A stretch of DNA of 64,000 nt from assembly GCA_964503265.1 (NCBI GenBank), contig CAZCYO010000001.1, positions 25,119-89,118 on the forward strand, given 5' to 3'. The notes under the pieces were generated by a model, which saw nothing but the letters and a program-made list of their open reading frames with translations, was not told the DNA's origin and ran no database searches. This document shows, in pieces, positions 11,078-53,541 of the stretch (position 1 is the first letter of the stretch; each line of letters begins with the position of its first letter). The position numbers were made by a program, and so were the translations under genes. Source of the DNA: an uncultured Gammaproteobacteria bacterium (lineage in GTDB: Bacteria; Patescibacteriota; Microgenomatia; Levybacterales; UBA12049).

Positions 11078-12274
11078 TTGTTTTTGTTAAAATCAGCACA
11101 GATGGAAAATATAATTGAACTCATTAATGAAGCGGGAGTAAAATTTTTGGAACCACTTACCATAGATGCAACGTATGCGACTATTGTTGAGGAAGCAAAG
11201 AAACTCGTTAAAGCTGAGTACGGATCAGTTCTCTTAGAACAGGACGGCAAGCTTGAGCGGGTATATGCCTCGGATCCATTTCTCGAACATATTATGGTAC
11301 GTGAACGAGGTTTTACGTACGATGCATATAAAACCAGAGTTCCTCATGTTAAAAGTATTGTCGATATCGAAAAAGTTCACCCTGAAATAAAAGCAAAGGG
11401 AATAAAATCTACGATATTCATTCCACTATTTTATCGAAGTAAATCGCTTGGTGTATTATCACTCGATTCACTTACAGATAAAAAATTTACCAAAGAGGAA
11501 CTTGGTGTATTTACCTTATTTGGTTCAATTGCCAGTCTTGCGATTCGTAAAACAGAGTTATATGCTGAAACACAAAAAGCGCTTGAAACTCGGGATTTAT
11601 TTATCTCACTTGCTTCACATGAACTTCGAACTCCGCTTACTTCGCTCAATGGATATGTGCAGCTACTCTATTCAAAACTTGGAAAACAAGACACAAATGA
11701 AGGGAGATGGTCACGTGAATTATATGAAGAGAGCGGGAGATTAACGAGTTTGGTTAAAGAATTACTTGAGATTAACCGGATAAAACAAGGCCAGCTTCAA
11801 TACAATCTTCGTGAGTGTCAGCTTGTAGATATCACTGAAAAAGCAGTTGAACGCGCTCAATTTACTCATAAAGAACATACGATTCTTTTTACAAGCTCTG
11901 TTTCCAAAGGAAATGACTTGTTAATCGCAGATAGTGATAAGTTACTGCAAATGCTTAGCGGACTTATTCGAAATGCGACTAAATTCTCGACTCCTCATAC
12001 GAAAGTAGAAATTTCACTAACCGAAGAAAAAAATATGTTTAAACTAACAGTGACAGATGAAGGAGAGGGGATATATAAAGAAGATTTACCACATGTATTT
12101 GATGAATTTTTTAAAGGAGCAAATAGTAAACAAAAAGAAGAACAAGGAATGGGTGTTGGACTTCTCCTCGCGAGATATATCGTAAACTATCATAAAGGGA
12201 CTATCGCAATTTCTTCAACTGTCGGAAAGGGTACGCAGGTAATCGTGAAACTGCCAAAAGTTGAGTATGAATAG
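11078..12274 (+). CDS. soluble sensor histidine kinase (GAF + HisKA + HATPase_c)
   Basis: No TM; GAF-like N-domain; SHELRTPLTSL H-box; N/G1/G2 boxes (IRNATKFS, DEGEGI, GMGVGL). Confidence 0.8.
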   Translation: MFLLKSAQMENIIELINEAGVKFLEPLTIDATYATIVEEAKKLVKAEYGSVLLEQDGKLERVYASDPFLEHIMVRERGFTYDAYKTRVPHVKSIVDIEKVHPEIKAKGIKSTIFIPLFYRSKSLGVLSLDSLTDKKFTKEELGVFTLFGSIASLAIRKTELYAETQKALETRDLFISLASHELRTPLTSLNGYVQLLYSKLGKQDTNEGRWSRELYEESGRLTSLVKELLEINRIKQGQLQYNLRECQLVDITEKAVERAQFTHKEHTILFTSSVSKGNDLLIADSDKLLQMLSGLIRNATKFSTPHTKVEISLTEEKNMFKLTVTDEGEGIYKEDLPHVFDEFFKGANSKQKEEQGMGVGLLLARYIVNYHKGTIAISSTVGKGTQVIVKLPKVEYE

Positions 12275-14932: not shown

Positions 14933-15051
14933 TGTTTAGATACGAATCTTTACTCTACCTGTATTTAACTTGTAATTTTCCTTATTGACAGCTGATTTTT
15001 AGAGATCTACGCTGATAAGGAAGAGCAAAAAAATTGCTCACTAAATATTTA

Positions 15052-15648
15052 ATGAAACACGCAAAAGCTGCCGTTGCTGTTTTTTTTATTACACTAATTT
15101 TTATTAGTTTTTCACCCACGAGAGCTCATGCAAATTTCTTCACTGATGTAGTAGATAAAGTTAAAAGTATTTTTGTAAAAGAAGATAAACCTCAACAAAC
15201 TGATTTGTCGATTGATTCACAAATTGTTCTCGCTCCTGGCGGTGATGTAAATAATAACGGGCAAATAGATTCTGGTGATATCGTACGGTTTATTTATAGT
15301 GTTAAAAATTCTTCAGATAAAACATATGCATTTTCAACTATTAAGACAAACATAAACCGCAACTCACTCAACTTTATTCATAATATTATCGGTGTTTCTG
15401 GACTAGCGGATAATGCTCGAGAAATAACTCTTCCGAATATCAGGTTATATCCTCATCAAGACCGGCTAATTAGTTTCGATGCGAGAGTTAATTATTTTGA
15501 AGATGAAGATCATCAAATCGAAACCACTGCTGTATTAGAAACTGCCGATAAGTCAGTAATTAAAGCTGCAAAAAAAGAAATTACCGCTAAAAAATTGAAG
15601 AAGGGAACAATCAATTCACTGTTTGATCGAAAAAATAGCAATGAATAA
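15052..15648 (+). CDS. secreted protein with a dockerin/EF-hand-like Ca-binding repeat
   Basis: Signal peptide MKHAKAAVAVFFITLIFISFSPTRAHA; DVNNNGQIDSGDIV matches dockerin repeat pattern; track ORF starts at TTG 15034. Confidence 0.4.
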   Translation: MKHAKAAVAVFFITLIFISFSPTRAHANFFTDVVDKVKSIFVKEDKPQQTDLSIDSQIVLAPGGDVNNNGQIDSGDIVRFIYSVKNSSDKTYAFSTIKTNINRNSLNFIHNIIGVSGLADNAREITLPNIRLYPHQDRLISFDARVNYFEDEDHQIETTAVLETADKSVIKAAKKEITAKKLKKGTINSLFDRKNSNE

Positions 15649-18600
15649 AAGAATTAAATTAGTTATAAGCATTGTACTAAATGCAACGTTACTCCTGACT
15701 TCGTATCTTCCTGGGTTCACCCTTTTATTTTCTCCTCAGATTGCAGATGCTGCAAATTCATGTGTTTCATACGGTGGTGGATCTGCTGCTGTTTTAAATG
15801 CCAAGGTTGGTGGTGTTGCCTTAGATCAAGCAGCCACATTTCTAGCTGATATGGATGATATTAAAGGGGCGTATTATGATTCTGTAAAAGATCGAATTGT
15901 TTTTATTGGTAAAGAAAACACATCACTTCCTGAATTTAATAAAGATGATTTAGCAGTAGCAATTAAATCTGTAATCTTTAAAGGAGTGCTTCCGGCTGTA
16001 AGTATCGAGAAATATGAGGGAGATCCTTTTGGTCCTAAACAACGTGCAATTTATTACGGAGGAATTGAGAATACACAATTTGGGAAAACCCTCATGGATG
16101 CAGACATAAAATTAAAAGAATTTGTACATGGATATGATAAAGATGAAAATCCAGTAAGCACATCAGTTTCAGGTTATGAATCACATTTCCAAAGATGGTT
16201 AGATCAAACTCCTGGGTTAACTGAATCTAATGCCAGCAGATGGGTAATAAGACCTAAATTAGTTTCTCTTAAAAGGGATACATCTACCAATTCTTTTGTT
16301 TTTAACGATGTGCAAATGGAAGTATATACGGAGGCGATGTCAGCATCTAATAGCGCAAAGTGGAATACAGCAGCAAGTGATTTTGCTACACATCATTCAT
16401 TACATTTCGATGATTTTGCACAAGAAATTCCAGCTTATGCCGATGCAAAACAGTTAGGAAAAATTGTAGCTGTAATCAAATGGCTTTCTGACAATGGGAT
16501 TCCTTCGGATTTTGCGTGGGCTTCTGATTATGCTCCTACTATTGTCTCAACACCAACTGAAGTAGATACCGTAATAACTCCAGAAATTGATGGATGGCGT
16601 TTATATGGAGGACTTGAGTATTACACGCCAAATACTTATACAACAGATAGTAGTACATCTGCTTCTTTTAAAACAGCTTCTGAGAATATAAATGCACCAA
16701 AGGAAGATATTCATTGGACGTTTACAAAAGATGGCCAAACATATGAATCTGTCGCTGTAGCAGCTGATGCATTTAGAAGTATTGGAGCATATAGTACTAG
16801 TGTTACGGATATGTCATTCCCAATGACCGGGGATTCAAGTCTCTCATTCACAAGATCATATTCTTCTTTCTCTGGAGCACAAAATGGGTGTGGTAGAGGA
16901 TGGTCGTTTATGCCGGCAGCGCTAACTGATAATAATCCTTCAGCTGATGGGGTTATTATTGGGACTTGTCCGAATGATACGTTTAATCATCGATATAAAG
17001 TAGCGTTTAATTCAAACACTGGAATAAGAGAAACATTTACTAACTACTGTGTGAGTAATACTAGTACGTACTTACCAGACGAAAGTGTTTTTCATTCGTC
17101 AATTACTGTTACTTCTACATCCAGCGCGTTAACTGTTTTAAAAGTAAAACAAAAAGATCAAAGTGAATATGAATTTCACGATATTTATTTAGATCCCAAT
17201 CAATATACAAGAACAAATATGCGGCTGGTGGCATATCGTGATAAAAATGGAAACAAAACGAATTACAATTATGATTCATCAAATAAACTAACAAGTATAA
17301 GTGATGATCGTGGACATCAACTAGCGATTACCTATAACGGAAGTAATTTAATTTCTTCTGTTAAGGACTGGACGAATAGAGAGGTTTCCTATGGATATGA
17401 CTCTCAAGGAAATTTAACTTCGGTGACTGATCCCAATGGGGAAACAAAACAGTACGGATATAACGACAATTATAAACTTAGCTCAATTACTGACAGATTA
17501 GGTCACACAATTCTTACTAATACATATAATGATGATGCGCGGTTAGCTACTCAAGTGAATTCAGGAAGTGTATCGGCTACCTTTACGTATGATGACACTC
17601 ATAGAGTTGCAACAACTTCATCCACTCTATCAAGAGTGCAAACAATTAAATATGATGAAAAAGCGAGGATACTAGAACAAATCGACCCACTTAATAATAA
17701 AACTACCTATACTTATGGAACCGAATATGCGCCTTTAACAGTTACAGATAGAAGAAATCATACAACCACAAATACCTATGACTCAAATGGAAATGTAACA
17801 TCTGTAACCGATCCATATAGCAAGACCGTTACTTACACCTATGATGGAAGTAATAGAATTACCCAAATTTCTGATGGTCGATATGGGGCTAGTCCCAAAG
17901 TTTCTAAATTCACTTACGATGGGTCCGGAAATCTGACTCAAGCATCCGAGTCAGGAAGGATTACTAACTTTACCTATGACTCATATGGAGAGATGTTAAC
18001 TAAAACTGATCCATTAACACATGTCATGACTTGGACGCGTGATTCATTTGGAAATAAACTAACAGAAACAAACGATTTGAGTAAAACTACTACGTTTGAA
18101 TACGACACATTAGCAAGGTTAAAGAAATCGACTGATTCAGAAGGAAAGTTCCAAACATTTTCTTATGATTACAATAACAATGTCTTAACGAGTACAAACT
18201 CAGCGGGAATAACGACAAATGAATATACGAAGGAAAATAAACTTAAGAAAGTTACATTACCTGATGGGACAATAACCCAGTTTACATATAACAATGCCGG
18301 GTCATTAAGTAGTGTCCAAGATGCTCTCAATAATACAACTACCTATGGGTATGACCAATATCAGAATATTACTTCTAACTTAAATGCACTTAATAAAACG
18401 ACTTCCTATACTTATGACAAGTTAAATAGAAGAACGGGGTCTACCACTCCACTTAGTAAAGTTACAGCACTTGAATATGATGCAAATGGGAATATCACTA
18501 AAAGAACAGATGCAAATAATAAAGATACGCTTTATCAATACGATAATTTAAATAGGCTTACTCAAATATCATATTCTGACAATAAAATAGTAAATTATAC

Positions 18601-21600
18601 CTATGATGATAGAGGAAATATGACATCGATGAGTGATAGTCTTGGAACAACCTCATACAGTTATGATATTTACAATCGGCTAACGCAGGTAACAGACCCA
18701 AATAGCAAAGTAGTGAGTTATTCCTATGATAATACTGATAATCTAACACAAATTACTTATCCAGGCAGTAAGGTAGTAGCATACGCATATGACAACGCTA
18801 ATCGTATAGAAACAATTACTGATTGGAATAGTCAGCAAACTACTTTTACCTATTTTGATAATGGTCTGATAAAGACTAAAACGCTTCCTAATGGAATAGT
18901 TAGTAGTTACACCTATGATAATGCAAATAGATTAAGTTCTGTTCAGCACACAAAAAGTTCAACTGTACTTGCAAAATTTGACTATGCAAGAAATGCAGTT
19001 GGAGGGATTATAACAGCGACTGAAAGTGGGACATTATTACCAACTACACCTACTTCTTCACCTTCTGCTGTTACTGTGAGTAATTTAGCTACAATGAGTA
19101 GCGTTACAAGTGCTAGTTCATATACGACATCTTCTATCTCACCATCAGCGAATAAATTATTATTACTGACAGTTGCTAGTAGGACAGGAATTACTGCTAA
19201 TCCAAACCAGCCAACCGTAACAGGAAATGGATTAACATGGGTTGCTGTCGATAGCCGAGTATATGATGATACGAGTAGTAGCAGAAGGAGAATAACTCTA
19301 TTTCGAGCAATGGGTACTAGCCCAACAAGTGGGACATTATCAATAGATTTTGGTGGACAGACACAGACAAATTATTCAGCTGTTGTTGATCAAGTAAGTG
19401 GTATGGATACATCTGGGACTAATGGATCAGGAGCTATCGTTCAATCTGCTAATAATTATGACAGTAGTAGTTCTTCATCTACATTATCTGTAACATTAGC
19501 AGCTTTTGGAAATACAAATAATGCAACATATGGAACATTTGCCAATGGAGATGGAGTTGCAGATCCGACTGCTGGTTCAGGATTCACCCAATATGGAGAA
19601 GTAACTGATTCAAATAATGCAATTAAAGTTTTATCAGAATTTAAGAGTACTAATGATACAAGTGTAGATATTGATTGGAATGATCCTTCGGAATTAGGGG
19701 GAATTGCTGTAGAAATAAAAGCGGGTAGTACAAGTAGTTACGAAACTGTCTCCGCATCTAATCTGATATCAGGAAGTACAACAAATGTGAATAGTTCCTC
19801 TACTGCATCTATTTCGCCAAGTGCAAATAAACTTGAGTTGTTAACTGTATCAAGCAGAACTGATATTTCTGCTAATCCAAATCAGCCAACTGTAACAGGA
19901 AATGGACTAACATGGGTTGCGGTAAACAGTATTGTTTATGATACTACTAGCACTAGTCGAAGAAGAGTTACCTTATTTAGAGCGATGGGTGCAAGCCCTA
20001 CATCTGGTGCACTTTCCATAGATTTTAGTGGACAAACGCAAACTGATATAACTTGGTCAGTGGATGAGTTATCTGGTGTCGATACAACAGGGACTAGTGG
20101 CTCAGGTGCAATTGTTCAATCTGCAACGAATAAAGATGAGACAGGATCCGCAACATCATTAGCAATTACCTTGTCTTCATTTGGAAATACAGCAAATGCT
20201 ACGTATGCCGGGATTGGTAAAGATGGAAATACTTCGGCTACAGCTGGTTCAGGTTTTACTATTTCTTCAGATGTTGCATCTTCGACAAATGTAGGTACTA
20301 GCACTCAATGGAAAAACACTAATGATACCTCAGTAGATATTTCATATGCTAGTTCTGTTTTAGTTGGAGGAATTGCTGTAGAAATTAAGGCGGGTACTTC
20401 ATCATCAGTATATCCGAATATCTCTTTATCGAATAAGACAACTGGATCTAACTCGTCTGGAGTTAATTCAGCAAATACATCATCTATTTCACCGTCTGCG
20501 AATAAATTACAGTTGTTAACTGTCGCTAGTAGAACGGCTATTACTGCAAATCCAAATCAACCTACAGTTTCAGGCAATGGATTAACATGGACTGCAGTAA
20601 ACAGCGTAGTATATGATGACTCAAGTAGCAGTAGAAGGAGAATCAGTGTATTTCGTGCGTTAGGAGCCAGTCCATCTTCAGGAGCAATTACAATAAGTTT
20701 TGGTGGGCAAACACAAACAGATATAGACTGGTCTTTAGATGAAGCAAGTAATGTTGATACAAGTGGAAGTAATGGATCCGGGGCAATAGTTCAATCAGCG
20801 ACAAATTATGATGCCAGTGGAACAGCATCTACTCTATCAGTTTCATTAAGTAGCTTCGGAAGTAATAGTAATGCAACATTTGGTGCTTTTGCAAATGGAT
20901 ATGGATTAGCAAATCCGACTGTAGGGTCAGGGTTTACAAAATATGGGGAACTCGCTGATTCAAATAATAATATAAAAGTTCTTACTGAATTTAAAAATAG
21001 TAATGATACTAGTATTGATATAAATTGGAATGATAATTCGGAACTCGGTGGTATAGCGATAGAATTAAAAGCTGCAGGAGTTCAATCAAATACTACTCAG
21101 TTCACATATGATTCAGTTCATAGATTACTGACAACGACATTTCCAGCTAATTCATTTGTGTACACATATGACGCGGTAGGAAATAGATTAACGAATACTA
21201 AAGATGGAGTACAGACTACAGCAACATTTAACGATGATAATAAGCTAACGCAATTTGGTTCTACGAGTTACTCGTATGATAACAATGGAAATAGGACTGC
21301 AGCTGGAAGTAAGACAATCGCATATAATTTAGAAAATAAGGTTGCTACTCAATCTGCGAGTGGGGATCCAACGATAGAGTTTACATATGATGGAAATGGG
21401 AAGAGGTTAGGGCAGAAAGTAAATGGGACACAGACTAGAAGATATATTAATGACATCTCAGGAAGTCTAGAAAAAGTACTTATCACACAAGATCTCCAAA
21501 ATAGCACAGATAACTACTACCTCTATGGAAACGGCCTGGTTAGTGAAGGAGGAGTAAGTTCAGGTAATCGTAATTATTATCTCGAGGATGGATTAGGCAA

Positions 21601-22246
21601 CATACGAGCTATTACAGATAGCAGCGGAAACTCACTCGATACCATGACATATGATCCCTATGGAAATCTCCTCACCGGATCAAGCTCAGCAGAATTTAAA
21701 TTCAAAGGAGAACAACTAAACACCGATACAAGCCTCTACTACATGCGTGCCAGATACTATGATCCAACCACAGGAACATTCACCTCAAAAGACCCGCACG
21801 AAGGAGATCTAAATAATCCAAACTCACAGAATGGCTATGACTATGCAAATGGTGATCCTATTAATCTGAATGATCCATCTGGAGAGCTAGTATTTGCAGA
21901 TGATGCAATTTTTATTGGAGCAGCAGCGTGTGCAGGAGTGTATGTTTATGCTACTAATCCAGCTGTTAAATCTGCTGTAAATACAACTGTCAGCACGACA
22001 ATTAATCAAATTATAGGAGGTATAAATACTTTACTTGATGAATCTAGAAATCCAAAACAAGATACAAAGTTGAGTGAAGGTGAGATAAAGAAACTACAAA
22101 ACGGTGGTCAAGATATTCATGATATTAAAGGCGGTGATAGTGGCAAGGATCTTTTTAAAGATCCAAAGACGGGCGAAATTTATATTAAGCCTAAAAACGG
22201 TGCAGGACCAGGTGACGAAACAGGGTTAAATATCAATGATTTTTAA
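15623..22246 (+). CDS. giant RHS/YD-repeat polymorphic toxin protein with Sec signal peptide
   Basis: Signal peptide; dozens of YD repeats (YTYD..GN.T..TD); RHS core YYMRARYYDPTTGTFTSKDP then DPSGEL; ~115-aa variable C-terminus; alternative ATG at 15641 (MNKRIKL...). Confidence 0.85.
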   Translation: MIEKIAMNKRIKLVISIVLNATLLLTSYLPGFTLLFSPQIADAANSCVSYGGGSAAVLNAKVGGVALDQAATFLADMDDIKGAYYDSVKDRIVFIGKENTSLPEFNKDDLAVAIKSVIFKGVLPAVSIEKYEGDPFGPKQRAIYYGGIENTQFGKTLMDADIKLKEFVHGYDKDENPVSTSVSGYESHFQRWLDQTPGLTESNASRWVIRPKLVSLKRDTSTNSFVFNDVQMEVYTEAMSASNSAKWNTAASDFATHHSLHFDDFAQEIPAYADAKQLGKIVAVIKWLSDNGIPSDFAWASDYAPTIVSTPTEVDTVITPEIDGWRLYGGLEYYTPNTYTTDSSTSASFKTASENINAPKEDIHWTFTKDGQTYESVAVAADAFRSIGAYSTSVTDMSFPMTGDSSLSFTRSYSSFSGAQNGCGRGWSFMPAALTDNNPSADGVIIGTCPNDTFNHRYKVAFNSNTGIRETFTNYCVSNTSTYLPDESVFHSSITVTSTSSALTVLKVKQKDQSEYEFHDIYLDPNQYTRTNMRLVAYRDKNGNKTNYNYDSSNKLTSISDDRGHQLAITYNGSNLISSVKDWTNREVSYGYDSQGNLTSVTDPNGETKQYGYNDNYKLSSITDRLGHTILTNTYNDDARLATQVNSGSVSATFTYDDTHRVATTSSTLSRVQTIKYDEKARILEQIDPLNNKTTYTYGTEYAPLTVTDRRNHTTTNTYDSNGNVTSVTDPYSKTVTYTYDGSNRITQISDGRYGASPKVSKFTYDGSGNLTQASESGRITNFTYDSYGEMLTKTDPLTHVMTWTRDSFGNKLTETNDLSKTTTFEYDTLARLKKSTDSEGKFQTFSYDYNNNVLTSTNSAGITTNEYTKENKLKKVTLPDGTITQFTYNNAGSLSSVQDALNNTTTYGYDQYQNITSNLNALNKTTSYTYDKLNRRTGSTTPLSKVTALEYDANGNITKRTDANNKDTLYQYDNLNRLTQISYSDNKIVNYTYDDRGNMTSMSDSLGTTSYSYDIYNRLTQVTDPNSKVVSYSYDNTDNLTQITYPGSKVVAYAYDNANRIETITDWNSQQTTFTYFDNGLIKTKTLPNGIVSSYTYDNANRLSSVQHTKSSTVLAKFDYARNAVGGIITATESGTLLPTTPTSSPSAVTVSNLATMSSVTSASSYTTSSISPSANKLLLLTVASRTGITANPNQPTVTGNGLTWVAVDSRVYDDTSSSRRRITLFRAMGTSPTSGTLSIDFGGQTQTNYSAVVDQVSGMDTSGTNGSGAIVQSANNYDSSSSSSTLSVTLAAFGNTNNATYGTFANGDGVADPTAGSGFTQYGEVTDSNNAIKVLSEFKSTNDTSVDIDWNDPSELGGIAVEIKAGSTSSYETVSASNLISGSTTNVNSSSTASISPSANKLELLTVSSRTDISANPNQPTVTGNGLTWVAVNSIVYDTTSTSRRRVTLFRAMGASPTSGALSIDFSGQTQTDITWSVDELSGVDTTGTSGSGAIVQSATNKDETGSATSLAITLSSFGNTANATYAGIGKDGNTSATAGSGFTISSDVASSTNVGTSTQWKNTNDTSVDISYASSVLVGGIAVEIKAGTSSSVYPNISLSNKTTGSNSSGVNSANTSSISPSANKLQLLTVASRTAITANPNQPTVSGNGLTWTAVNSVVYDDSSSSRRRISVFRALGASPSSGAITISFGGQTQTDIDWSLDEASNVDTSGSNGSGAIVQSATNYDASGTASTLSVSLSSFGSNSNATFGAFANGYGLANPTVGSGFTKYGELADSNNNIKVLTEFKNSNDTSIDINWNDNSELGGIAIELKAAGVQSNTTQFTYDSVHRLLTTTFPANSFVYTYDAVGNRLTNTKDGVQTTATFNDDNKLTQFGSTSYSYDNNGNRTAAGSKTIAYNLENKVATQSASGDPTIEFTYDGNGKRLGQKVNGTQTRRYINDISGSLEKVLITQDLQNSTDNYYLYGNGLVSEGGVSSGNRNYYLEDGLGNIRAITDSSGNSLDTMTYDPYGNLLTGSSSAEFKFKGEQLNTDTSLYYMRARYYDPTTGTFTSKDPHEGDLNNPNSQNGYDYANGDPINLNDPSGELVFADDAIFIGAAACAGVYVYATNPAVKSAVNTTVSTTINQIIGGINTLLDESRNPKQDTKLSEGEIKKLQNGGQDIHDIKGGDSGKDLFKDPKTGEIYIKPKNGAGPGDETGLNINDF
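19135..21075 (+). repeat. three tandem ~670-nt (~224-aa) intragenic repeats inside the RHS gene
   Basis: SISPSANKL.LLTV.SRT.I.ANPNQPTV.GNGLTW.AV.S.VYD..S.SRRR...FRA.G.SP.SG...I.F.GQTQT ... GGIA.E.KA recurs at ~19135, ~19808, ~20482. Confidence 0.7.
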
Positions 22247-22993
22247 TTGCGTGATATAATGCTTCATATGTTCAACGATCCTGGGCTAAAAAACGAGAGT
22301 ACTGCGTGGCTTAATATTATTGGATTTGATATGAATCCAGATGAAATAACTAAAGAAGTCGGCGTTAATCCAACAAAAACTAGAATAAAAGGTGAATACC
22401 GAACTGTCGGTACAAAAACGCCGAGAAAAATTATTAATAAGGAGAATCAATGGATTTTAGAGTCAAGTTTATCTCGTAAGTTACCATTAGAAAAGCATTT
22501 GGAGCATCTGCTTGATAAAATAAAATTCCATAAAGACAGCTTTAAATATCTTACAAAAAGCTGCACTGTTGAGCTGAATAGTGCTTTATATTACTACGAA
22601 GCCAATCCAGGGCTTTCTTTTGAAACTGAACTTCTTAAGGAAATAGCAGATTTTGATATTTCATTAAATCTTGATATATACTGTCTAGCTGGAACAGTTC
22701 TTGAGCTAGAACAACCGAAAGTTGTTAGGCATTTAAAAAAACATTTGTCTGAAGTAAAGTTTCTTTTGAATGGTACTAAAGAAAATGAAGTAAATTATAT
22801 TTTAGAAAGTTTGAAGGGTATAGAAGAATCCGCCTATGCTATTCAGAGTGATTATATGCACGATTTGATTTGGACTGAAAAGCTCGAAGATGAAAGGTAC
22901 GAAGAAACTCTATTAAAAATAGCTAAGGAAATAAATAACATTAATAACTATGTAAAGAAATCTAAATATTTATCTTCATTAGTGAATAAATGA
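22247..22993 (+). CDS. candidate immunity protein, DUF4279-like N-domain
   Basis: Starts immediately after RHS stop (TTG; ATG at 22259/22268); ...PDEITK..G..PTK...KGE...G.......W.L.S... pattern recalled from DUF4279; family assignment unverified. Confidence 0.4.
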   Translation: MRDIMLHMFNDPGLKNESTAWLNIIGFDMNPDEITKEVGVNPTKTRIKGEYRTVGTKTPRKIINKENQWILESSLSRKLPLEKHLEHLLDKIKFHKDSFKYLTKSCTVELNSALYYYEANPGLSFETELLKEIADFDISLNLDIYCLAGTVLELEQPKVVRHLKKHLSEVKFLLNGTKENEVNYILESLKGIEESAYAIQSDYMHDLIWTEKLEDERYEETLLKIAKEINNINNYVKKSKYLSSLVNK

Positions 22994-23108
22994 GTGATTT
23001 AGTATTTAATATTTTTATTAGTTTATTTGGACTATTTTTTGCTATACAGTTTAAAAAAATGGAGAAAGAGATTCTTAAACCAATAGGTTTATAGTATAAT
23101 CAAAAAAA

Positions 23109-23594
23109 ATGAGTCGTTTAAAAATTGGCGATATTTTCGAAATCCCATTATCTAATAACAAAAAAGCATATGGACAGTATATTTATTTAGATTTTTTTGG
23201 ACCTTTAATACGGGTATTTAATCTCATAGTAGATGTAAATAAGCAGGTGGACATAGATGTTATTACCTCTTGCAAATTACTTTTCCCCCCAGTTTATACA
23301 GGTGTTAAAGCTGCAATCAAAAATGGCATGTGGAGCGTGATAGGGAACAAAGAAATACATGAATTTGTATTTCCGGGGTTTGTAAGAACATTTCAAGACT
23401 TAAATACAGGTGATGCAACAATTTGGTTTTTATGGGATGGGAAAAACAACGTACGAATTGGTAAAAAACTTTCTGATGATATGAAAAAATTTGAGTTTCT
23501 TGCGATATATTCTCCCGATTTAATTGAAAAAAGGATTATTAGCAAGGAAAAACCATATCAAGATTTAATTCTTACAAATAAATTAGCAAATTAG
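23109..23594 (+). CDS. hypothetical protein, candidate immunity/orphan immunity gene
   Basis: 161 aa, KIGDIFEIPL..NKKAYGQYI N-terminus similar in style to predicted immunity families; context only. Confidence 0.3.
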   Translation: MSRLKIGDIFEIPLSNNKKAYGQYIYLDFFGPLIRVFNLIVDVNKQVDIDVITSCKLLFPPVYTGVKAAIKNGMWSVIGNKEIHEFVFPGFVRTFQDLNTGDATIWFLWDGKNNVRIGKKLSDDMKKFEFLAIYSPDLIEKRIISKEKPYQDLILTNKLAN

Positions 23595-23595
23595 A

Positions 23596-23928
23596 ATGAT
23601 ACTCTCTCTACCTGCACGAATACGACAAGAATCAATAAAAAAACTTGTTGAAGTAGCAACCTTAATGGAATCAAATAAAATTAATTTGATAGAAGGTAGT
23701 AGACATATTAATAGATTACGTCATTATACAGAAGATGCTAATGATGATCTTTTTACTATTTTTATTTTAGTGAACTCAGACACAGATGATATACCACTTA
23801 ACGAAACCAGAAAAAACTTTAGTAAAGCACTTTTAGAAGAAAAAGATAAAAAAATGGTTGATTACTTAGCTAATATGAAACCTACTATTTTGCAAGGTTG
23901 TAAAGAAATTATAAAAAAGTTCTCCTAA
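23596..23928 (+). CDS. hypothetical small helical protein
   Basis: 110 aa, starts 2 nt after previous stop. Confidence 0.3.
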   Translation: MILSLPARIRQESIKKLVEVATLMESNKINLIEGSRHINRLRHYTEDANDDLFTIFILVNSDTDDIPLNETRKNFSKALLEEKDKKMVDYLANMKPTILQGCKEIIKKFS

Positions 23929-23987
23929 AATAATATAGCGATTTGAAACCGTCTCTAAAATTAACCTCTGCTATAATACCATCCATT

Positions 23988-24512
23988 ATGAAAATTAGTT
24001 TTATTACAAAGTTATCTGTTGAAAACTGTATTAAAAAAATTAGTGATAACGCTGAGAGAAATACGTTTATGGCGAGCTTTTCTCGTTTATGGGATTACGA
24101 AAAGACATTTTTTTATCGTATAAAGGGGAATACTTTTCGACTAGAAAAAGTTAATTATTATAGAAACTCATTCAAACCAGTCTTTTATGGAAAATTAATT
24201 AAAGAAAATAATGGAACGAGGATAGAAGGTTATTTTGGAATTCATCAAGCTGTTAAACTGTTCATGATATTTTGGTTTCTAGGGGTAACAATTTTGAGCC
24301 TTATCCCCGCACTTAATGCGATTGATGATCTTTTTATTCCTTCAAAAATAGTTCCCGGCCATCTTACTGCAAATCCGCTTTTGGCATTGTCTATACCGTT
24401 TATATTTATTGGATTTGGAATATTAATAATTTTTATCGGAAAATATTTTGGGGAAAAAGATGAAAATGAAATAGTCGAATTTATTAAATCTAAGCTAGAA
24501 GTAATTTCTTAA
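23988..24512 (+). CDS. hypothetical membrane protein (2 C-terminal TM)
   Basis: ATG 23988 preceded by tataat; track ORF begins at TTG 23943. Confidence 0.3.
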   Translation: MKISFITKLSVENCIKKISDNAERNTFMASFSRLWDYEKTFFYRIKGNTFRLEKVNYYRNSFKPVFYGKLIKENNGTRIEGYFGIHQAVKLFMIFWFLGVTILSLIPALNAIDDLFIPSKIVPGHLTANPLLALSIPFIFIGFGILIIFIGKYFGEKDENEIVEFIKSKLEVIS

Positions 24513-25207
24513 TATACTTGAATATTTTTTGAATCTGTTACATTAACCGTGTTACTGCACTTATCTTCCTCTCCTGTCACTATCACACTTTTCCCTTCAT
24601 ACAAATTCGGAGAAAATGAGCTATTTATCGGGAGATGGAGGACTGAGCCATTTTGCTTAATTAATACTACTCTTTGTGTGTCTTTATTCTGGACTTGCTT
24701 TCCCTGAAGTATCGTTAGCATGTCTGTCAGGATAGATACTACTGGAATTCTTTTCGCAGTATCTACTGCTGTTAAAATCCGGAGGGTTCCAACCTCTGAT
24801 TGTATACCTTTCGAACATAATGCATGTGTTCCGCCAAAGAATCCAAATGTTCCAATCACTAAGACAATTCCCGCGAGTCCTAAAGATCCTTTCAATGTAA
24901 AACTAAAGGCTTTTTGTTTTTTAATTTCTTCAAGCAGTGCTGAAATTTTACGCAGAGGATTGCCGACATGGACATCAAGAAGATCGTCATTTGTTACTTT
25001 GTGATCGACTCCTATGCCATGGGGGAGAAGGGCATCTAGTACTGGATACTTTTGGCTAGTAGTTATGGGTGATTGGTTGTTTGGCAGAAAGGATGGATCT
25101 GTGTGATCAACGTGAACAAAATGGCCGTGTGCATCATGAGGATGCTTGGGGCCAGATAGTGTTCTACCATCAATATCTTCTGATAATTTAGCAGATGACT
25201 CATCCAT
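24509..25207 (-). CDS. His-rich single-TM protein, unknown function
   Basis: HPHDAHGHFVHVDH N-terminal His cluster, central TM, beta-rich C-domain. Confidence 0.35.
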   Translation of the reverse strand: MDESSAKLSEDIDGRTLSGPKHPHDAHGHFVHVDHTDPSFLPNNQSPITTSQKYPVLDALLPHGIGVDHKVTNDDLLDVHVGNPLRKISALLEEIKKQKAFSFTLKGSLGLAGIVLVIGTFGFFGGTHALCSKGIQSEVGTLRILTAVDTAKRIPVVSILTDMLTILQGKQVQNKDTQRVVLIKQNGSVLHLPINSSFSPNLYEGKSVIVTGEEDKCSNTVNVTDSKNIQVY

Positions 25208-25554: not shown

Positions 25555-26226
25555 TTACTCTCTAATAACGTAGCCGAAGCCTCGGACGGAGTGGAGGAGT
25601 TTCTTTTCGTGGCCTTCATCTACTTTTTTTCGTAAGTATCCCATATAGACATCGACAACTCTGGTTTCAACTTCGCTTGAATAAAGCCAAATTCTATTTA
25701 AGATCATTTCACGAGTCAAAATTCTTCCTTTATTACTCATAAGATACTGGAGTAATTTAAATTCTTGGGGAGTGAGTTGGATTTGTTTACCGTTTCGTAT
25801 GACTTCGAGTGTTTTCGCATCGAGAGTTAAGTCGTTTATCGTTAACTTCGTGTCGCCGTTTCCTGTTGAGCGAAGTCTGGCTTTAATTCTAGCTAAAAAT
25901 TCATCTGCCACAAATGGTTTTGTAATGTAATCATCTGCTCCTAAATTAAGTCCTTGGACAATATCACTGACACTGTCTTTGGCGGTTAGAATAATGATTG
26001 GAAGTTCTGGGTATTTTTTGCGAACTTCAGTACAGACTGCTTCTCCAGACATATTCGGAAGTCCGAGATCAAGTACCATCACATCGGGTTCCATTTTTCC
26101 AAGTTGATCAAGTGCTTCAATGCCATCTCCAGCTAATTGGACATTATAGGCATTATCAAGGAGGAGTTCTTTTAAATATTTTTGGAGACCTTTGTCATCT
26201 TCTACCACCAGAATTGTGTACGTCAT
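25555..26226 (-). CDS. OmpR/PhoB-family response regulator
   Basis: REC domain (VEDD...D, DVMVLDLGLP, ILTAKD) + winged-helix (LTPQEFKLLQYL...RVVDVYMGYLRKK). Confidence 0.88.
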   Translation of the reverse strand: MTYTILVVEDDKGLQKYLKELLLDNAYNVQLAGDGIEALDQLGKMEPDVMVLDLGLPNMSGEAVCTEVRKKYPELPIIILTAKDSVSDIVQGLNLGADDYITKPFVADEFLARIKARLRSTGNGDTKLTINDLTLDAKTLEVIRNGKQIQLTPQEFKLLQYLMSNKGRILTREMILNRIWLYSSEVETRVVDVYMGYLRKKVDEGHEKKLLHSVRGFGYVIRE

Positions 26227-26664: not shown

Positions 26665-27042
26665 ATGTATAATGTCGATATGAATGGAAAAATATTAGTT
26701 GCAGAAGACGATAGTGCAATAGTAGAGGTAATGAAAATTATTCTTGAAGATGCCAAATATACTGTTTTTACGGCAGATAATAGTCGCGATATTCATTCAC
26801 TTATCAAAAACGAAGATCCACAGCTTTTACTACTCGATATCTGGTTATCTGGTGAAAATGGTGGGGAAATTGCAAAAAGTATTAGAACAGATGAGAAAAC
26901 AGCATCACTTCCAATTGTCATGATTTCGGCAAATAACGAAACAGAACGAATCGCTAAAGAAGTAGGAGCAGCGGGATTTTTACAAAAGCCATTTACCATT
27001 GATGATTTACTTTCGATGGTTAAACAGCACATTCGTGCTTAA
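26665..27042 (+). CDS. single-domain CheY-like response regulator
   Basis: KILVAEDD, LLLLDIWLSG, MISANNE, FLQKPF; no output domain; probable start at MNGKIL (26683). Confidence 0.8.
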   Translation: MYNVDMNGKILVAEDDSAIVEVMKIILEDAKYTVFTADNSRDIHSLIKNEDPQLLLLDIWLSGENGGEIAKSIRTDEKTASLPIVMISANNETERIAKEVGAAGFLQKPFTIDDLLSMVKQHIRA

Positions 27043-27369: not shown

Positions 27370-27942
27370 ATGTCTAAAAAAAATATTAGTTTAGTCCTTT
27401 CTATTATTCTTGCCGTTATTTATTATGCAACTTCGACTTCTTCACATCCGGAAATTCTCGGAACAAAAAATGTCGTTATTGCCCCACCTATTTCTGTCAC
27501 TCAAACTCAGGTTGTGATTGGACAGTATGCTGTCACGAAAGTAGTCGATGGAGATACGATTAAAGTTACTCGTGAGAATGAAATGAAAACAGTTCGCTTG
27601 ATTGGTGTCGATACTCCAGAAACAGTTGATCCACGAAAAACTGTTCAATGCTTTGGTAAAGAAGCATCTGATTTTACGAAGTCACTTCTTGACGGACAGA
27701 CTGTAACACTTCAATCAGATAACACACAGCAGGTAACAGATAAATACGGACGGATGCTGGCATATGTATATCTATCAGATGGTACGCTCGTTAATGAAAA
27801 AATAATTCGCTCGGGATATGGATATGAATATACCTATAACGTGCCTTATATTCACCAAAAAGAATTTAAAGAAGCACAGCGTCTAGCAGAGTTAGAAGGA
27901 AACGGGTTATGGAGTGCTAGTACATGCCAAGGAAAACGCTAA
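27370..27942 (+). CDS. secreted/membrane-anchored thermonuclease (SNase family)
   Basis: N-terminal TM; VVDGDTIKV..VRLIGVDTPE ... RMLAYVY core motifs of staphylococcal-nuclease fold. Confidence 0.85.
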   Translation: MSKKNISLVLSIILAVIYYATSTSSHPEILGTKNVVIAPPISVTQTQVVIGQYAVTKVVDGDTIKVTRENEMKTVRLIGVDTPETVDPRKTVQCFGKEASDFTKSLLDGQTVTLQSDNTQQVTDKYGRMLAYVYLSDGTLVNEKIIRSGYGYEYTYNVPYIHQKEFKEAQRLAELEGNGLWSASTCQGKR

Positions 27943-47920: not shown

Positions 47921-47975
47921 TTTATTTTTGAGAATCTCGTTTGCTTCCCATTTCATTTGCTCGTATAATAATCAT

Positions 47976-49514
47976 ATGGTTCTTATAAAAAAGTATTGGA
48001 AAGAAATACTCATCAGTCTAGCACTTGTAGTTGGATATTTTTTCCTTCGTCTCCTTTCTTTACAAAGCCTCCCTATTTTTACTGATGAAGCTATTTATGT
48101 TAGATGGGCACAAATTGCACTTCAGGATGCGAACTGGCGATTCATATCTCTAACTGATGGTAAGCAACCTATGTATGTCTGGGTTGCGCTTATTTTCATT
48201 AAATTTATTCAGGATCCACTAATCGCTGGACGAATGGTATCTGTAGTTTGTGGGTTTTTTACATTGGTTGGTTTGTGGCTTCTATCATATGAGCTATTTA
48301 AAAATAAACGAATGGCTTTTTTGACTGCACTGTTATATGTCGTTTTCCCTTTTGCACAAGTGCTTGATCGGATGGCTCTCTATGACAGTATGGTAGGCGC
48401 ATTTGCTGTTTGGGGGCTTTATTTATCGATTCTTCTTGTTAGGCACAGAACAGTGACTAATGCATATACACTTGGTATTATTTGGGGAGGAGGAGTGCTT
48501 ACTAAGACGAATGCGTTTTTTAGTATTGCAGCAGTACCACTTACTCTCCTTTTAGGTAACTTTGAAAGAAAAAATTGGAAAAAAGAAATCGTACGCTGGA
48601 TACTGCTTGCAGGGTTTGCTGCAATCATTTCTCAGGTAATGTATACGATCCTTCGATTGTCTCCACTTTACGGCATGATTAATACGAAGAATGCTACCTT
48701 TGTTTATCCAGTTGGTGAATGGATTCATCACCCTTTAACCTATTTCTCTGGGAATTTTCATGGATTAACTAGTTGGTTACTCCAATATCTAGGAATCTCA
48801 TATTCGTTACTCCTCGTTCTTGGACTAGGCGTTTTTATGAAAGAATGGAAAGAAAAAGTTGTCCTATTTATCTACTTTTTGGCTCCATTTATATTTCTCG
48901 CACTATTTGGAAAAGTTATTTTCCCTCGTTTTATTTTCTTTACGAGCCTTATGCTACTTCCAATTATTGGATGGGGACTTAATTTTATTTTAAATGGTAT
49001 TTCCTATTTTCTAAAATCAAAAGATAAACAGTTTATCTCTATAACTCAGATACTTGTCGTGATTCTCTTTATTATATATCCGCTTTATACGTCAGTCACT
49101 TTTGCCGTTGATCCGACAAAGGCTCCTATCGCTGATGCAGATAATGTGCAATATATAAACGGATGGAACGCAGGATGGGGTGTTGATCAAAGTATCGAAT
49201 TATTTAAAAAAGAAGCGCAGGATAAAAAAATATTTATCGGTACAGAAGGAACATTCGGTATGATGCCTTTTGCACTTGAAATGCAGCTTGTTGATAATCC
49301 AAATATAATTCTAAAAGGGTATTGGGGATTTGATAAAACACTTCCAGATGAAGCTTTGGTCTATGCTAAACAAATGCCAGCATATTTCGTGTTCTATCAA
49401 CCCAACCATCGTCCACAGCTAGATGCAAATTTGTATCCAATGAAATTAGTATTTAAAGTCCAACAAGGAAATACAAATTATTATTATTCGGTTTACCAAA
49501 TCATCTCCCGATAA
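47976..49514 (+). CDS. GT-C membrane glycosyltransferase (PMT/ArnT-like)
   Basis: FTDEAIYVRWAQ (DE motif loop 1), ~12 TM; track ORF begins at TTG 47928. Confidence 0.5.
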   Translation: MVLIKKYWKEILISLALVVGYFFLRLLSLQSLPIFTDEAIYVRWAQIALQDANWRFISLTDGKQPMYVWVALIFIKFIQDPLIAGRMVSVVCGFFTLVGLWLLSYELFKNKRMAFLTALLYVVFPFAQVLDRMALYDSMVGAFAVWGLYLSILLVRHRTVTNAYTLGIIWGGGVLTKTNAFFSIAAVPLTLLLGNFERKNWKKEIVRWILLAGFAAIISQVMYTILRLSPLYGMINTKNATFVYPVGEWIHHPLTYFSGNFHGLTSWLLQYLGISYSLLLVLGLGVFMKEWKEKVVLFIYFLAPFIFLALFGKVIFPRFIFFTSLMLLPIIGWGLNFILNGISYFLKSKDKQFISITQILVVILFIIYPLYTSVTFAVDPTKAPIADADNVQYINGWNAGWGVDQSIELFKKEAQDKKIFIGTEGTFGMMPFALEMQLVDNPNIILKGYWGFDKTLPDEALVYAKQMPAYFVFYQPNHRPQLDANLYPMKLVFKVQQGNTNYYYSVYQIISR

Positions 49515-49516
49515 GT

Positions 49517-51106
49517 ATGGAACTAGTAAAACATATTCTGAGAGCAAAGCTTTTTACTATCATACTTATTCTGTTATGCTCACTTCCACTTATTTTTCCA
49601 TTATTCCATCCAGGATTTTTTGTCTCAGACGATGGAGATATATTGATAATACGTTTAACTGCTTTTCATGAAGCTTTTGCACAGGGTCAATTTCCTGTTC
49701 GACTTATTCCACGATTATATTTCCATTATGGTTATCCGGTAAGTAATTTTTTATACCCAGGATATCTATATATTTCAGAAGCATTTCACCTAATTCATTT
49801 CGGATTTATTAATTCTATAAAAATACTACTCATTCTTTCTCTCAGTTTGAGTGGAGTATTTACTTATTTGTGGCTTAACAAATGGTTAAAAAAATTCCCA
49901 AGTATCATCGGAAGTTTAGTATATTTGTATGCTCCATATCATTATTACGATATGTATAAACGTGGATCTATAGGAGAAGTGTTGGCTCTTGCAGTTGTGC
50001 CATTTGTTTTTTGGGTGATGGAACTGCGATATGTTTCATTAATTATTATTGGGTTATCTTTTCTTATTATTTCACACAATACGCTTGCTATAGTCTTTCT
50101 CCCATTACTTGTTAGTTACTATTTTATTCGACATAAGGTATGGCAGCGAAAAAATGAAATCCTCCGCATGAGTCTTTTTCTCATTATTTCTCTACTAATT
50201 TCATCTTTCTTCTGGATACCTGCACTCTATGAATTGCACTATACGATTTTCTCACAGACAACAGTCAGTGAAATAGGAAATTATTTTATCCAACCGGATC
50301 ATATGCTTTTTGGAAAATTGAGTTACTTTTATTTGGTTGTAACTGCAGGTATTTCATTTGTTCTTTTCAAATACAGACAGAAAGTAGAGAAAATAAACAT
50401 GGCTTTACTAACTTTTCTAGGATTTTTTAGCACAATTGCATTATTCTTAAATACTTCACAGAGTGTAATTATTTGGAATACTTTACCAATTTCATTTATT
50501 CAATTTCCGTTTCGTTTGTTCGCTATTACTATGATTTTCTTTGCGATGGTGGTGGCTATCGTAATCGATATGATAAAAGGTAAAAAGCAATATGTTGTTG
50601 GCGTAGTACTTGCTATTCTTTTTATTGGCCCTTTATTCTTTTTTATTCGACCTCAAGAATATTCAGGAAGAGATGACATGTTTTATTCAACGAATGATGA
50701 TTCAACAACGATAAAAAATGAATACTTACCGACATGGGTTAAAGAGCGATCTTTTTCAAAACCAAAATCAGAAATAGAAGGCAAAGGAGTAACATATCTT
50801 GGAGAAAAGAAAGGCACATACATGATAGATGTTACAGGAGATAGTTCGCGAAACATGAGATTTAACATGATTTATTATCCAGGATGGGTTGCAAAAGCAG
50901 ATGGAGTTATGATCCCAATTAGTTACAACAACAATAAAGGAGTAATGGATGTCGTAATACCGAGAAACACTAATCAAGTGACATTTATGTTTACTGAAAC
51001 ACCAGTTCGAATGATTAGTAATATTTTGTCAATTATCGGTCTTATATTCTTAGGTATAGTACTTGTTCGAGATATAACAATATATTATGCAGCTAGTAAA
51101 AAATAA
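49517..51106 (+). CDS. polytopic membrane protein, paralog A
   Basis: PLFHPGFFVSDDGD...FPVRLIP...GYP..FLYPGYLYI; 13+ TM. Confidence 0.4.
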   Translation: MELVKHILRAKLFTIILILLCSLPLIFPLFHPGFFVSDDGDILIIRLTAFHEAFAQGQFPVRLIPRLYFHYGYPVSNFLYPGYLYISEAFHLIHFGFINSIKILLILSLSLSGVFTYLWLNKWLKKFPSIIGSLVYLYAPYHYYDMYKRGSIGEVLALAVVPFVFWVMELRYVSLIIIGLSFLIISHNTLAIVFLPLLVSYYFIRHKVWQRKNEILRMSLFLIISLLISSFFWIPALYELHYTIFSQTTVSEIGNYFIQPDHMLFGKLSYFYLVVTAGISFVLFKYRQKVEKINMALLTFLGFFSTIALFLNTSQSVIIWNTLPISFIQFPFRLFAITMIFFAMVVAIVIDMIKGKKQYVVGVVLAILFIGPLFFFIRPQEYSGRDDMFYSTNDDSTTIKNEYLPTWVKERSFSKPKSEIEGKGVTYLGEKKGTYMIDVTGDSSRNMRFNMIYYPGWVAKADGVMIPISYNNNKGVMDVVIPRNTNQVTFMFTETPVRMISNILSIIGLIFLGIVLVRDITIYYAASKK

Positions 51107-52784: not shown

Positions 52785-52791
52785 TCTATTT

Positions 52792-53541
52792 ATGGCTGCA
52801 AAGAAACTTTCACTTGAAATTACAATCCCTGTCTATAATGAAGAAAAAGAGCTTGAGGATAGTATTTTAAAACTCCATACTTTCTGTAAAAAAAACATGC
52901 AAGACTATGCGTGGCGAATAACTATCGCAGATAACGCGTCAAGTGATAATACACCAGTTATTGGAGCGACTCTTGCTAAGAAATACTCTGAAATAAAATT
53001 ATTTCGTTTAGAAGAAAAGGGAAGAGGACGTGCTGTAAAGAGGGCATGGAGTGAGTCAGATTGTGATATTTGTGCTTATATGGACTTGGACCTTTCGACA
53101 GATTTAAAGCATCTCCCAGCCCTTTGTAAGGCGCTTGAAAATGGATATGATATTGCGATTGGATCTCGACTCAAAAAGGGAGCGCTTGTTGAGGGAAGAA
53201 CAATGCTTCGAGAAATAACGTCTCGTACACTTAATTTCTTTTTTATTAAATTATGGTTCCAAACATCATTTACTGATGCACAGTGTGGTTTTAAAGCAGT
53301 TACGCGAGACGTTGTTGAGAAACTTATTCCAAAAATTCAGGATAATGGATGGTTTTTTGATGGAGAATTACTTATCGTTGGTGAGAAAAGTGGATATAAC
53401 ATATATGAAGAGCCCGTGCACTGGGTAGATAATCCTGGTTCAACAGTTCGCCTTATTTCAACTATTTCAGGGGATATACGAGTAATGTTTCGATTACTTA
53501 CTACTAAGCCATGGAAACAGATCTCATCGAACCTAACATAG
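52792..53541 (+). CDS. GT2 glycosyltransferase (DPM1-like)
   Basis: ITIPVYNEE...ITIADNASSDNT, DLD, QCGFK. Confidence 0.85.
   Translation: MAAKKLSLEITIPVYNEEKELEDSILKLHTFCKKNMQDYAWRITIADNASSDNTPVIGATLAKKYSEIKLFRLEEKGRGRAVKRAWSESDCDICAYMDLDLSTDLKHLPALCKALENGYDIAIGSRLKKGALVEGRTMLREITSRTLNFFFIKLWFQTSFTDAQCGFKAVTRDVVEKLIPKIQDNGWFFDGELLIVGEKSGYNIYEEPVHWVDNPGSTVRLISTISGDIRVMFRLLTTKPWKQISSNLT

Follow-up and report, generated by a model that had tools for sequence, protein, structure and literature searches.

The toxin locus

The window analysed here, a stretch of 64,000 nucleotides (nt) from contig CAZCYO010000001.1 (assembly GCA_964503265.1), encodes an RHS/YD-repeat polymorphic toxin of 2201 amino acids (aa) at positions 15641 to 22246, identified by Pfam, NCBIfam and PDB sequence matches. 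The toxin gene belongs to a run of six genes on the + strand, in which it follows a gene for a secreted 198-aa partner protein and precedes four small genes. An RHS toxin with an immunity gene is ordinary; the noteworthy part of the locus is an exchangeable cassette in the wall of the RHS shell, with its apparent phage-tail origin and its transfer between scaffolds. A preliminary description of this DNA had recognised the toxin but overlooked the partner gene, the Patescibacteria-wide family to which the RHS protein belongs, the hot spot in the shell and the 680-aa triple-repeat, phage-like insert that occupies it.

The RHS open reading frame (ORF) ends at 22246 and starts either at TTG 15623, which yields the 2207 aa reported previously, or at ATG 15641, from which an identical 2201-aa protein (P0121, 100% identity) is called in a 360,915-bp NCBI contig. 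The same 2201-aa protein was found independently in the Logan assembly SRR12487046, on a 34,637-bp contig, and this identity in two independent assemblies makes a misassembly very unlikely.

Profile searches bear out the assignment to the RHS/YD-repeat proteins, with matches to Pfam RHS_repeat (PF05593, 7.6e-81, in 9 stretches) and to the NCBIfam families YD_repeat_2x (TIGR01643, 1.3e-57) and Rhs_assc_core (TIGR03696, 1.2e-19). The ‘dozens of YD repeats' mentioned in the preliminary description correspond to 23 motifs when [YF]x[YF][DN] is counted, so that the wording was generous but fair. The first part of the shell (aa 441-1128, positions 16961 to 19024, + strand) is delimited by RHS_repeat and YD_repeat_2x matches and aligns with solved Rhs shells, of which 7q97 is the best PDB sequence match (5.6e-59). 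The second part, together with the Rhs-associated core (21086 to 21889, + strand), is likewise supported by hidden Markov model matches and by alignment with solved shells, and ends in DPSGEL; both this string and YYMRARYYDPTTGTF, quoted in the preliminary description, are present. Within this part, the TIGR03696 core covers aa 2004-2081 (positions 21650-21883), and the putative autoproteolysis motif DPSGEL occupies positions 21872-21889. The bacterial teneurin-like structures 9pt5 and 9ifo match the end of the shell and the core (1.1e-40), and the core aligns through ARYYDP...DPSG with solved Rhs and teneurin-like structures. The PxxxxDPxG cleavage motif is present as PINLNDPSGEL, with DPSGE beginning at aa 2078, and the aligned DPxG is where the shell chains of 8h8a and 9ifo, as deposited, stop, which fits self-cleavage at this point.

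The N-terminus, which reads MNKRIKLVISIVLNATLLLTSYLPGFTLLFSPQIADA before the predicted cleavage site and A after it, follows the n/h/c scheme of Sec signal peptides and includes hydrophobic windows at aa 5-11; sequence inspection and hydropathy thus support the signal peptide predicted previously and place it at aa 1-37 (15641 to 15751, + strand), with putative cleavage after A-D-A. It is followed by a family-specific N-terminal region (aa 38-440, positions 15752 to 16960, + strand) that consists of an alpha/beta domain and a beta-rich, plug-like part, the latter with a weak DUF6531 match at aa 382-423. No known fold relative of the alpha/beta domain was found, and aa 38-380 yielded no Pfam or NCBIfam domain, cell-wall-binding repeats included. 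Nor did Pfam detect PAAR, prePAAR, VgrG-related, SpvB, TcdB, NHL or TTR domains anywhere in the RHS protein, with the PAAR-type domains also searched in NCBIfam.

A whole-protein search retrieved about 100 relatives of 1500-2200 aa that show 45-57% identity over the N-terminal region and the shell. The named sources are Curtissbacteria, Gottesmanbacteria, Saccharibacteria, Kaiserbacteria and ‘Patescibacteria group', which fits the small-genome lineage proposed earlier for this DNA. Judged by these sequence matches, the window protein is a member of a Patescibacteria-wide RHS family with an N-terminal domain of its own.

Exchangeable cassettes in the shell wall

The two parts of the shell are separated by a 680-aa insert of non-RHS sequence (aa 1129-1808). 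When the flanking shell segments (aa 1021-1128 and 1809-1900) were used as probes, both were located at a single conserved position (around aa 1100-1150) in 97 relatives. The distance between the two flanks is 0-3 aa in 23 of the 97 proteins, 44 aa in one and more than 100 aa (166-680) in the remaining 73, and at least nine unrelated classes of insert can be told apart. The commonest is CARDB, present once or twice in 46 proteins; a cluster of 18 proteins carries PA14, F5/8 type C (discoidin) and an unnamed repeat resembling carbohydrate-binding modules (CBM-like); and the others include Laminin_G_3, an FG-GAP/VCBS propeller, dockerin and several classes without a Pfam match. CARDB, PA14, F5/8 type C, Laminin_G_3, FG-GAP and dockerin are all known as families of binding or adhesion modules.

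Four types of hot-spot cassettes lack Pfam matches, those of P0123, P0169, P0177 and P0214. The P0177 cassette is the CBM-like repeat, which contains WxxWSW and is common to 18 relatives, whereas those of P0123 and P0214 are internally duplicated. The P0123 cassette was considered as a distant relative of the phage-like domain described below, but this was rejected at an hhalign probability of 0.6%.

In the window protein, the insert opens with a Pro/Thr/Ser-rich linker, TLLPTTPTSSPSAVT (positions 19025 to 19069, + strand, recognised from the sequence), and equivalent Pro/Thr linkers flank the cassettes of P0124 and P0132. Such a single site, unoccupied in a quarter of the family and elsewhere filled with diverse binding modules on flexible linkers, resembles a position for an externally displayed, exchangeable binding module. 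By analogy with published Rhs and Tc structures, it is unlikely that three folded domains of about 22 kDa each would be accommodated inside the cocoon beside its cargo.

The insert of the window protein consists mainly of three tandem copies of an all-beta, phage-tail-like domain of about 220 aa (with a repeat length of about 225 aa): R1 (aa 1144-1367, positions 19070 to 19741), R2 (aa 1368-1592, positions 19742 to 20416) and R3 (aa 1593-1815, positions 20417 to 21085), all on the + strand. R1 and R3 are supported by comparison of the copies, R1 also by the profile search, and R2 by an AlphaFold2 (AF2) model and its matches in BFVD. Because the locus comes from metagenome assemblies and the insert is built of tandem repeats, it could be taken for an assembly chimera or a recent, functionless duplication; this explanation is so improbable as to be negligible. 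The reading frame is intact, the protein is identical in two independent assemblies, inserts of the same kind are present in P0122, P0278 and P0279, and the copies, despite having diverged to 57-67% identity at the protein level and 63-69% at the DNA level, retain the invariant residues of the domain family. Tandem Repeats Finder detected nothing between 15 and 25 kb, that is, no recent DNA repeat, with the qualification that repeats of 675 nt exceed the period limit of the program and that the DNA of the copies is only 63-69% identical.

A Pfam search with the isolated cassette gave no match, and in PHROGs some of its stand-alone homologues show weak similarity to phrog_38872, a family without assigned function. 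The closest relatives of the cassette are more than 500 stand-alone proteins of about 238 aa without signal peptides, at 50-65% identity. A profile search of 1.84 billion cluster representatives retrieved 5424 members, 1733 of these at E<=1e-30 and with the window protein as the top score; most of the 5424 come from phages, as stand-alone proteins or within tail-tip proteins, and the others include surface proteins. The AF2 model of R2 is all-beta (pLDDT 94.9, pTM 0.92) and yields 71 matches at E<=1e-3 among the predicted viral structures of BFVD (best E 9e-17, TM 0.87), many of which are labelled ‘minor tail protein' and come from phages of Mycobacterium and Gordonia. The fold also matches a lactococcal receptor-binding head domain.

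The genomic context of the stand-alone homologues agrees with these matches, in that they are encoded in phage late-gene modules. In a 147-kb contig of a Saccharibacteria metagenome-assembled genome (MAG), one copy comes downstream of a major head gene, at a distance of 4 nt from the end of a tail-fibre-like gene of 886 aa; another follows an M23 tail-lysin-like gene in a contig binned with Microgenomates. P0340 is a lambda-type gpL of 2258 aa that includes the domain and is encoded between gpM and gpK-gpI-gpJ, that is, in a tail-tip module. The cassette domain is thus affiliated with phages and their tails, and tail or lysin genes adjoin the stand-alone gene in four of the loci (L004, L006, L010 and L058), although synteny does not settle whether the protein belongs to the head or to the tail. 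In the lambda-like tail-tip module of L058, this gpL (P0340, 8001-14777) has acquired an N-terminal extension of about 2000 aa, to which the cassette domain belongs.

Two further occurrences are of interest in their own right. In the podovirus-like contig of about 35 kb represented by L001, L002 and L003, the stand-alone gene is immediately followed by a gene for a 583-aa thiamine-pyrophosphate enzyme (L001, 10736-12487), an unusual phage cargo inside the structural module. In the cultured bacterium Geobacter hydrogenophilus DSM 13691 (L030, 9824-15460), the domain comes right after the signal peptide of a 1879-aa protein, the C-terminal half of which has many CxxCH-type motifs and resembles a multihaem cytochrome; this is an organism in which the domain could be studied.

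Among the best 120 members of the RHS family, the phage-like domain is found only in the window protein (three copies) and in P0122 (two copies), and the profile search added P0278 and P0279. The former is a fragment of a close relative, with a first copy 72% identical to R1 and a second one 81% identical to R2. The latter (L057, 6001-13008, on a 135-kb contig) is a different, TcB/TcC-like protein with a signal peptide, SpvB, FG-GAP and TcdB_toxin_midN domains, RHS repeats and an Ntox44 tip; no TcA-like gene was found near it. The two copies in P0279 are 72% identical to R1 and 73% identical to R3, respectively, follow in the same order, and occupy the corresponding position ahead of the last repeats and the core. 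Outside the cassette, BLAST aligns its shell with that of the window protein at about 27-29% identity, a longer match at 41% also spanning cassette sequence. The ordered orthologous copies in a different scaffold speak for a move of the array as a unit, and it behaves as a mobile module between RHS scaffolds.

Toxin tip, putative immunity genes and partner gene

The C-terminal tip, put at about 115 aa in the preliminary description, comprises exactly the 118 aa that follow DPSGEL (aa 2084-2201, positions 21890 to 22243, + strand). It opens with a hydrophobic segment (aa 2084-2105, positions 21890-21955) and carries an Ntox33 domain (PF15533; aa 2137-2199, positions 22049-22237), which is aligned over its entire profile (1-65 of 65) with 46.2 bits against a cut-off of 28.4; the isolated tip matches Ntox33 at 5.1e-14. 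The C-terminal region thus corresponds to a polymorphic-toxin domain, not a housekeeping one, as anticipated. The effector, which the preliminary description took to be likely unexplored, does not belong to a new family, given that Ntox33 has already been named, with a predicted H-K-D triad, no fold relative and no known activity (PMC9424270). Both motifs that define Ntox33, [DN]xHxxK and DxxxD (PMC3482391), are intact in the tip, as DIHDIK and DSGKD.

The tips of close relatives differ after the shared DPSGE or DPTGE: Ntox33 is present in the window protein, P0124 and P0140, P0122 and P0129 have another tip in common, and P0132 has a third. The precomputed Pfam accessions of the tips also vary across the family. 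Such divergence after a shared DPSGE, which upholds the earlier statement that the tip is variable, is a hallmark of polymorphic toxins.

The protein could, conceivably, be a non-toxic surface adhesin that derives from an RHS toxin, with a vestigial tip and unrelated small genes downstream. Teneurins are a documented case of the reuse of YD shells as adhesion receptors (PMC13018210), and the protein is rich in binding modules. However, the full-length Ntox33 match with both motifs intact (PMC3482391), the intact core and cleavage motif, and the conserved linkage to the DUF4279 gene described below render this possibility very improbable.

The four small genes that follow (22247-22993, 23109-23594, 23596-23928 and 23943-24512) are tightly packed on the same strand, as stated in the preliminary description, with gaps of 0, 115, 1 and 14 nt counted from the end of the RHS gene. 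The first encodes a DUF4279 protein (22259 to 22993, + strand; Pfam DUF4279, 4.5e-19), for which the ORF opens at TTG 22247 and gene callers start at 22259 or 22268. A DUF4279 gene lies directly 3' of the Ntox33 tip in all three inspected loci with this tip (the window, P0124 and P0140); P0122, with its different tip, has an unrelated 121-aa gene downstream instead. Such co-variation of DUF4279 with the Ntox33 tip is what a comparison of loci would be expected to show for a cognate toxin-immunity pair, and the DUF4279 protein is probably the immunity protein of the Ntox33 tip.

The second gene (23109 to 23594, + strand) encodes an Imm26-family protein (Pfam Imm26, 1.4e-13, above the cut-off). 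Imm26 has been noted in heterogeneous polyimmunity loci (PMC3482391), and since no second toxin fragment is present in the window, this is probably an orphan immunity gene. Specifically, tblastn detected no other RHS fragment, orphan tip or copy of the cassette elsewhere in the window. The product of the third gene, a 110-aa protein (23596 to 23928, + strand; G+C content 0.276), has a sub-threshold DUF2489 match (24 bits against a cut-off of 27) and is possibly encoded by another orphan immunity gene. The fourth, a 189-aa ORF (23943 to 24512, + strand) called as 174 aa from 23988, has two C-terminal hydrophobic segments and no Pfam or NCBIfam match. The multi-gene immunity cassette proposed previously is therefore supported for two of the four small genes, those for DUF4279 and Imm26, which leaves the other two without a match to an immunity family. 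The G+C content is 0.28-0.31 in the four small genes, 0.34-0.40 in the RHS gene and 0.367 in the window; the AT-richer small genes are consistent with imported cassettes.

The pattern of immunity genes bears on the question of who the victims of the toxin might be. A life attached to host cells is generally assumed for Patescibacteria, the RHS family is widespread among them, and the cassette classes are adhesion modules, so that the protein could be a weapon or an attachment device of an episymbiont, directed at the host bacterium and not at rival relatives, with immunity serving only to avert self-intoxication. We regard this as unlikely. A polymorphic tip combined with cognate and orphan immunity genes marks conflict between relatives among which tips are exchanged (PMC3482391), and the closest stand-alone relatives of the cassette are on phage-like contigs, some of them binned with Patescibacteria MAGs. 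If such phages infect Patescibacteria, the cassette domain would bind the surfaces of Patescibacteria. The pattern of the immunity genes thus favours related Patescibacteria, rather than the host bacterium, as the victims.

Upstream of the RHS gene, the start of the locus at 15034 given in the preliminary description belongs to a separate ORF that opens at TTG 15034. This is the partner gene, called from 15052 (15052 to 15648, + strand), which overlaps the ATG of the RHS gene by 8 nt and encodes a 198-aa protein with a predicted signal peptide, a dockerin-like Ca-loop motif and a weak signal of a DUF11-like beta-sandwich. A gene for a signal-peptide protein of about 197 aa lies directly upstream of, or overlaps, the RHS gene in all four loci inspected, and the window partner and the copy in L054 share 39% identity (E 1e-36). 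The partner family comprises 37 proteins, at least nine of which are encoded on contigs of the same size as those of RHS relatives. The family has no assigned Pfam domain; weak DUF11 matches were obtained for 14 of 34 members, together with weak dockerin signals, and its profile had no match at E<=1 among the PDB sequences. The partner and the N-terminal domain are the constant parts of the system and probably serve to present the toxin at the cell surface or to retain it there.

The setting of the locus is chromosomal, with MutS, a GAF histidine kinase, response regulators, an SNase homologue and Lon encoded nearby. A 232-aa ORF on the opposite strand (24509-25207), with one hydrophobic segment and no Pfam or NCBIfam match, converges on the end of the small-gene cassette. 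The toxin locus is flanked by the GAF histidine kinase (11078-12274, + strand), two response regulators (25555-26226, - strand, and 26665-27042, + strand) and the SNase-family nuclease (27370-27942, + strand). No component of a type VI secretion system (T6SS) was found among the window genes scanned with Pfam.

A possible mode of action

Taken as a whole, the locus is best read, with reasonable though far from complete confidence, as an operon of a Patescibacteria-type bacterium for a polymorphic RHS toxin that is exported via Sec and has, in its shell, a second module that can be exchanged and serves targeting. Contact-dependent action, which the preliminary description read from the architecture, is conjectural. 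The signal peptide would export the RHS protein, and the YD-repeat shell would enclose the 118-aa tip, which the Rhs core would cut off at DPSGE/L. The N-terminal domain and the presumably co-transcribed, secreted beta-sandwich partner probably keep the toxin at the surface of the producer, where the exchangeable modules would be displayed outside, from the single hot spot, via their Pro/Thr linkers. The three phage-tail-type domains most likely bind a structure on the target surface, probably a glycan, and so would set the target range. After binding, the tip would exit the shell and cross the target membrane, possibly aided by its initial hydrophobic segment, to act through the Ntox33 domain and its predicted H-K-D catalytic residues. 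In the producer and its kin, the DUF4279 protein would neutralise the tip, with Imm26 and perhaps the products of the next small genes acting as orphan immunity against other tips.

Among the known systems, WapA and the bacterial teneurin-like proteins are, by analogy, the nearest in mode of action to the one envisaged here, which would be an RHS toxin exported via Sec by a producer that has no outer membrane. As WapA of Bacillus subtilis and Streptococcus suis is generally described (see also PMC12704120), it shares with the window protein a signal peptide, a long YD/RHS region, an Rhs core with DPxG, a polymorphic C-terminal toxin, an immunity gene directly downstream and no link to a T6SS. 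Compared with WapA so described, the window protein shows no detected N-terminal wall-binding repeats and has, instead, a family-specific N-terminal domain and a secreted partner gene, with its binding modules inside the shell wall rather than at the N-terminus. Bacterial teneurin-like proteins are Sec-exported surface YD shells with an enclosed polymorphic toxic C-terminus, immunity proteins and variable adhesion domains; they are defined by a superfold of TTR, FN-plug, NHL propeller and YD shell plus a TIP domain, and their adhesion domains are N-terminal (PMC13018210). The match of the shell end and core to 9pt5 and 9ifo and a hydrophobic stretch after the cleavage motif are common to both, whereas the window protein lacks NHL and TTR matches in Pfam and has its variable modules within the shell sequence.

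The other comparisons are more limited. T6SS Rhs effectors (RhsA, represented by 7q97, Tse5, Tse15 and Tre23) have the same core and the greatest shell similarity, but the window protein has a signal peptide and no PAAR, prePAAR or VgrG-binding region. With the TcB-TcC component of Tc toxins, it shares the RHS cocoon, the autoproteolytic core and the encapsulated variable tip. The beta-propeller of TcB is a folded non-RHS domain that interrupts the repeat region and, as such, is a precedent for an insertion within the shell. Unlike Tc toxins, however, the window protein is devoid of SpvB and TcdB_mid domains, and its gene has no TcA-like neighbour; the TcB propeller does not vary and serves to dock onto TcA, whereas the insert varies and is similar to binding modules. 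The cassette is akin to phage minor tail and receptor-binding proteins in its fold and in its fusion to gpL in a lambda-like tail tip. Tailocins borrow host-recognition modules of phage type, which is a conceptual parallel to a toxin with a cassette. Set against these proteins and against the receptor-binding modules of tailocins and colicins, the cassette differs in that there is no tail apparatus and in that the module is present in triplicate within an RHS shell.

The main rival of the targeting interpretation differs from it only in the role of the cassettes, which would anchor the toxin to the envelope of the producer itself, to its own glycans or S-layer, with targeting provided elsewhere, for example by the N-terminal domain or the partner. 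We consider this rather unlikely, although several observations are compatible with it. P0211 carries a dockerin at the hot spot, and dockerins typically dock onto cohesin scaffolds of the producer. Strain-specific self-glycans would be available for binding, to judge from a surface-glycan and glycosylation cluster at 47.9-63.7 kb in the window. WapA and the bacterial teneurin-like proteins display themselves via wall- or S-layer-binding modules (PMC13018210). The known anchors, however, are N-terminal, a position that is filled here by the conserved N-terminal domain and the partner; the cassette is missing in 23 of the 97 relatives and hence is not essential for display; phage tail modules bind the surfaces of other cells; and the array moves between scaffolds with different N-termini.

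The glycan cluster (47928-63734, + strand; G+C content 0.31-0.35) consists of twelve back-to-back genes, among them those for PMT_2, two PTPS_related membrane proteins, three GT2 and one GT1 glycosyltransferase, a Polysacc_synt_3 flippase and YfhO. Its possible relevance is that binding cassettes or phage tails would recognise surface structures of this strain-specific kind.

Several points weigh against a targeting role of the cassettes or against the toxin model as such. The cassette domain family has no characterised member, and its matches among solved structures are weak. The phage of L001-L003 has the stand-alone gene placed between those for the portal and the major head protein, and its product could there serve the head, as a fibre or decoration protein, instead of the tail. 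Very large secreted surface proteins of bacteria contain the domain as well, often immediately behind the signal peptide; with its many occurrences in surface proteins that are not toxins, the domain may serve adhesion in general. Outward display and binding by the cassettes are inferred, signal-peptide cleavage and autoproteolysis are predicted from motifs, and the Ntox33 family to which the tip belongs has no known activity (PMC9424270).

A possible targeting slot and its bearing on target range

Polymorphic toxins are understood as a constant scaffold with a swappable tip, and this locus, together with about 100 relatives, points to a second swappable position, located in the wall of the shell and occupied by binding modules. 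In a tentative extension of the targeting interpretation, which we put forward as a possibility rather than as the expected outcome, the hot spot would be a programmable targeting slot, filled with cassettes that were captured, singly or in arrays, from the tails of phages infecting the same bacterial group and traded between unrelated RHS scaffolds. Toxins and phages would then share one pool of host-recognition modules, and the cassette, which would determine the range, and the tip, which would determine the killing, would evolve as two independent polymorphic sites. In the literature searched, coverage of which is incomplete, we found no description of this RHS family, of the cassette site within the shell or of the phage-like domain.

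The analysis defines three unannotated families that are possible Pfam entries, namely the phage and surface domain of about 220 aa, the N-terminal domain and the partner of about 198 aa, and adds comparative evidence for DUF4279 as the immunity partner of Ntox33. If the cassettes set the target range, they would suggest a natural design for the retargeting of protein toxins and would offer a way, through sequence, to learn which cells these uncultured, host-dependent bacteria attack or adhere to, something that is otherwise very difficult to find out.

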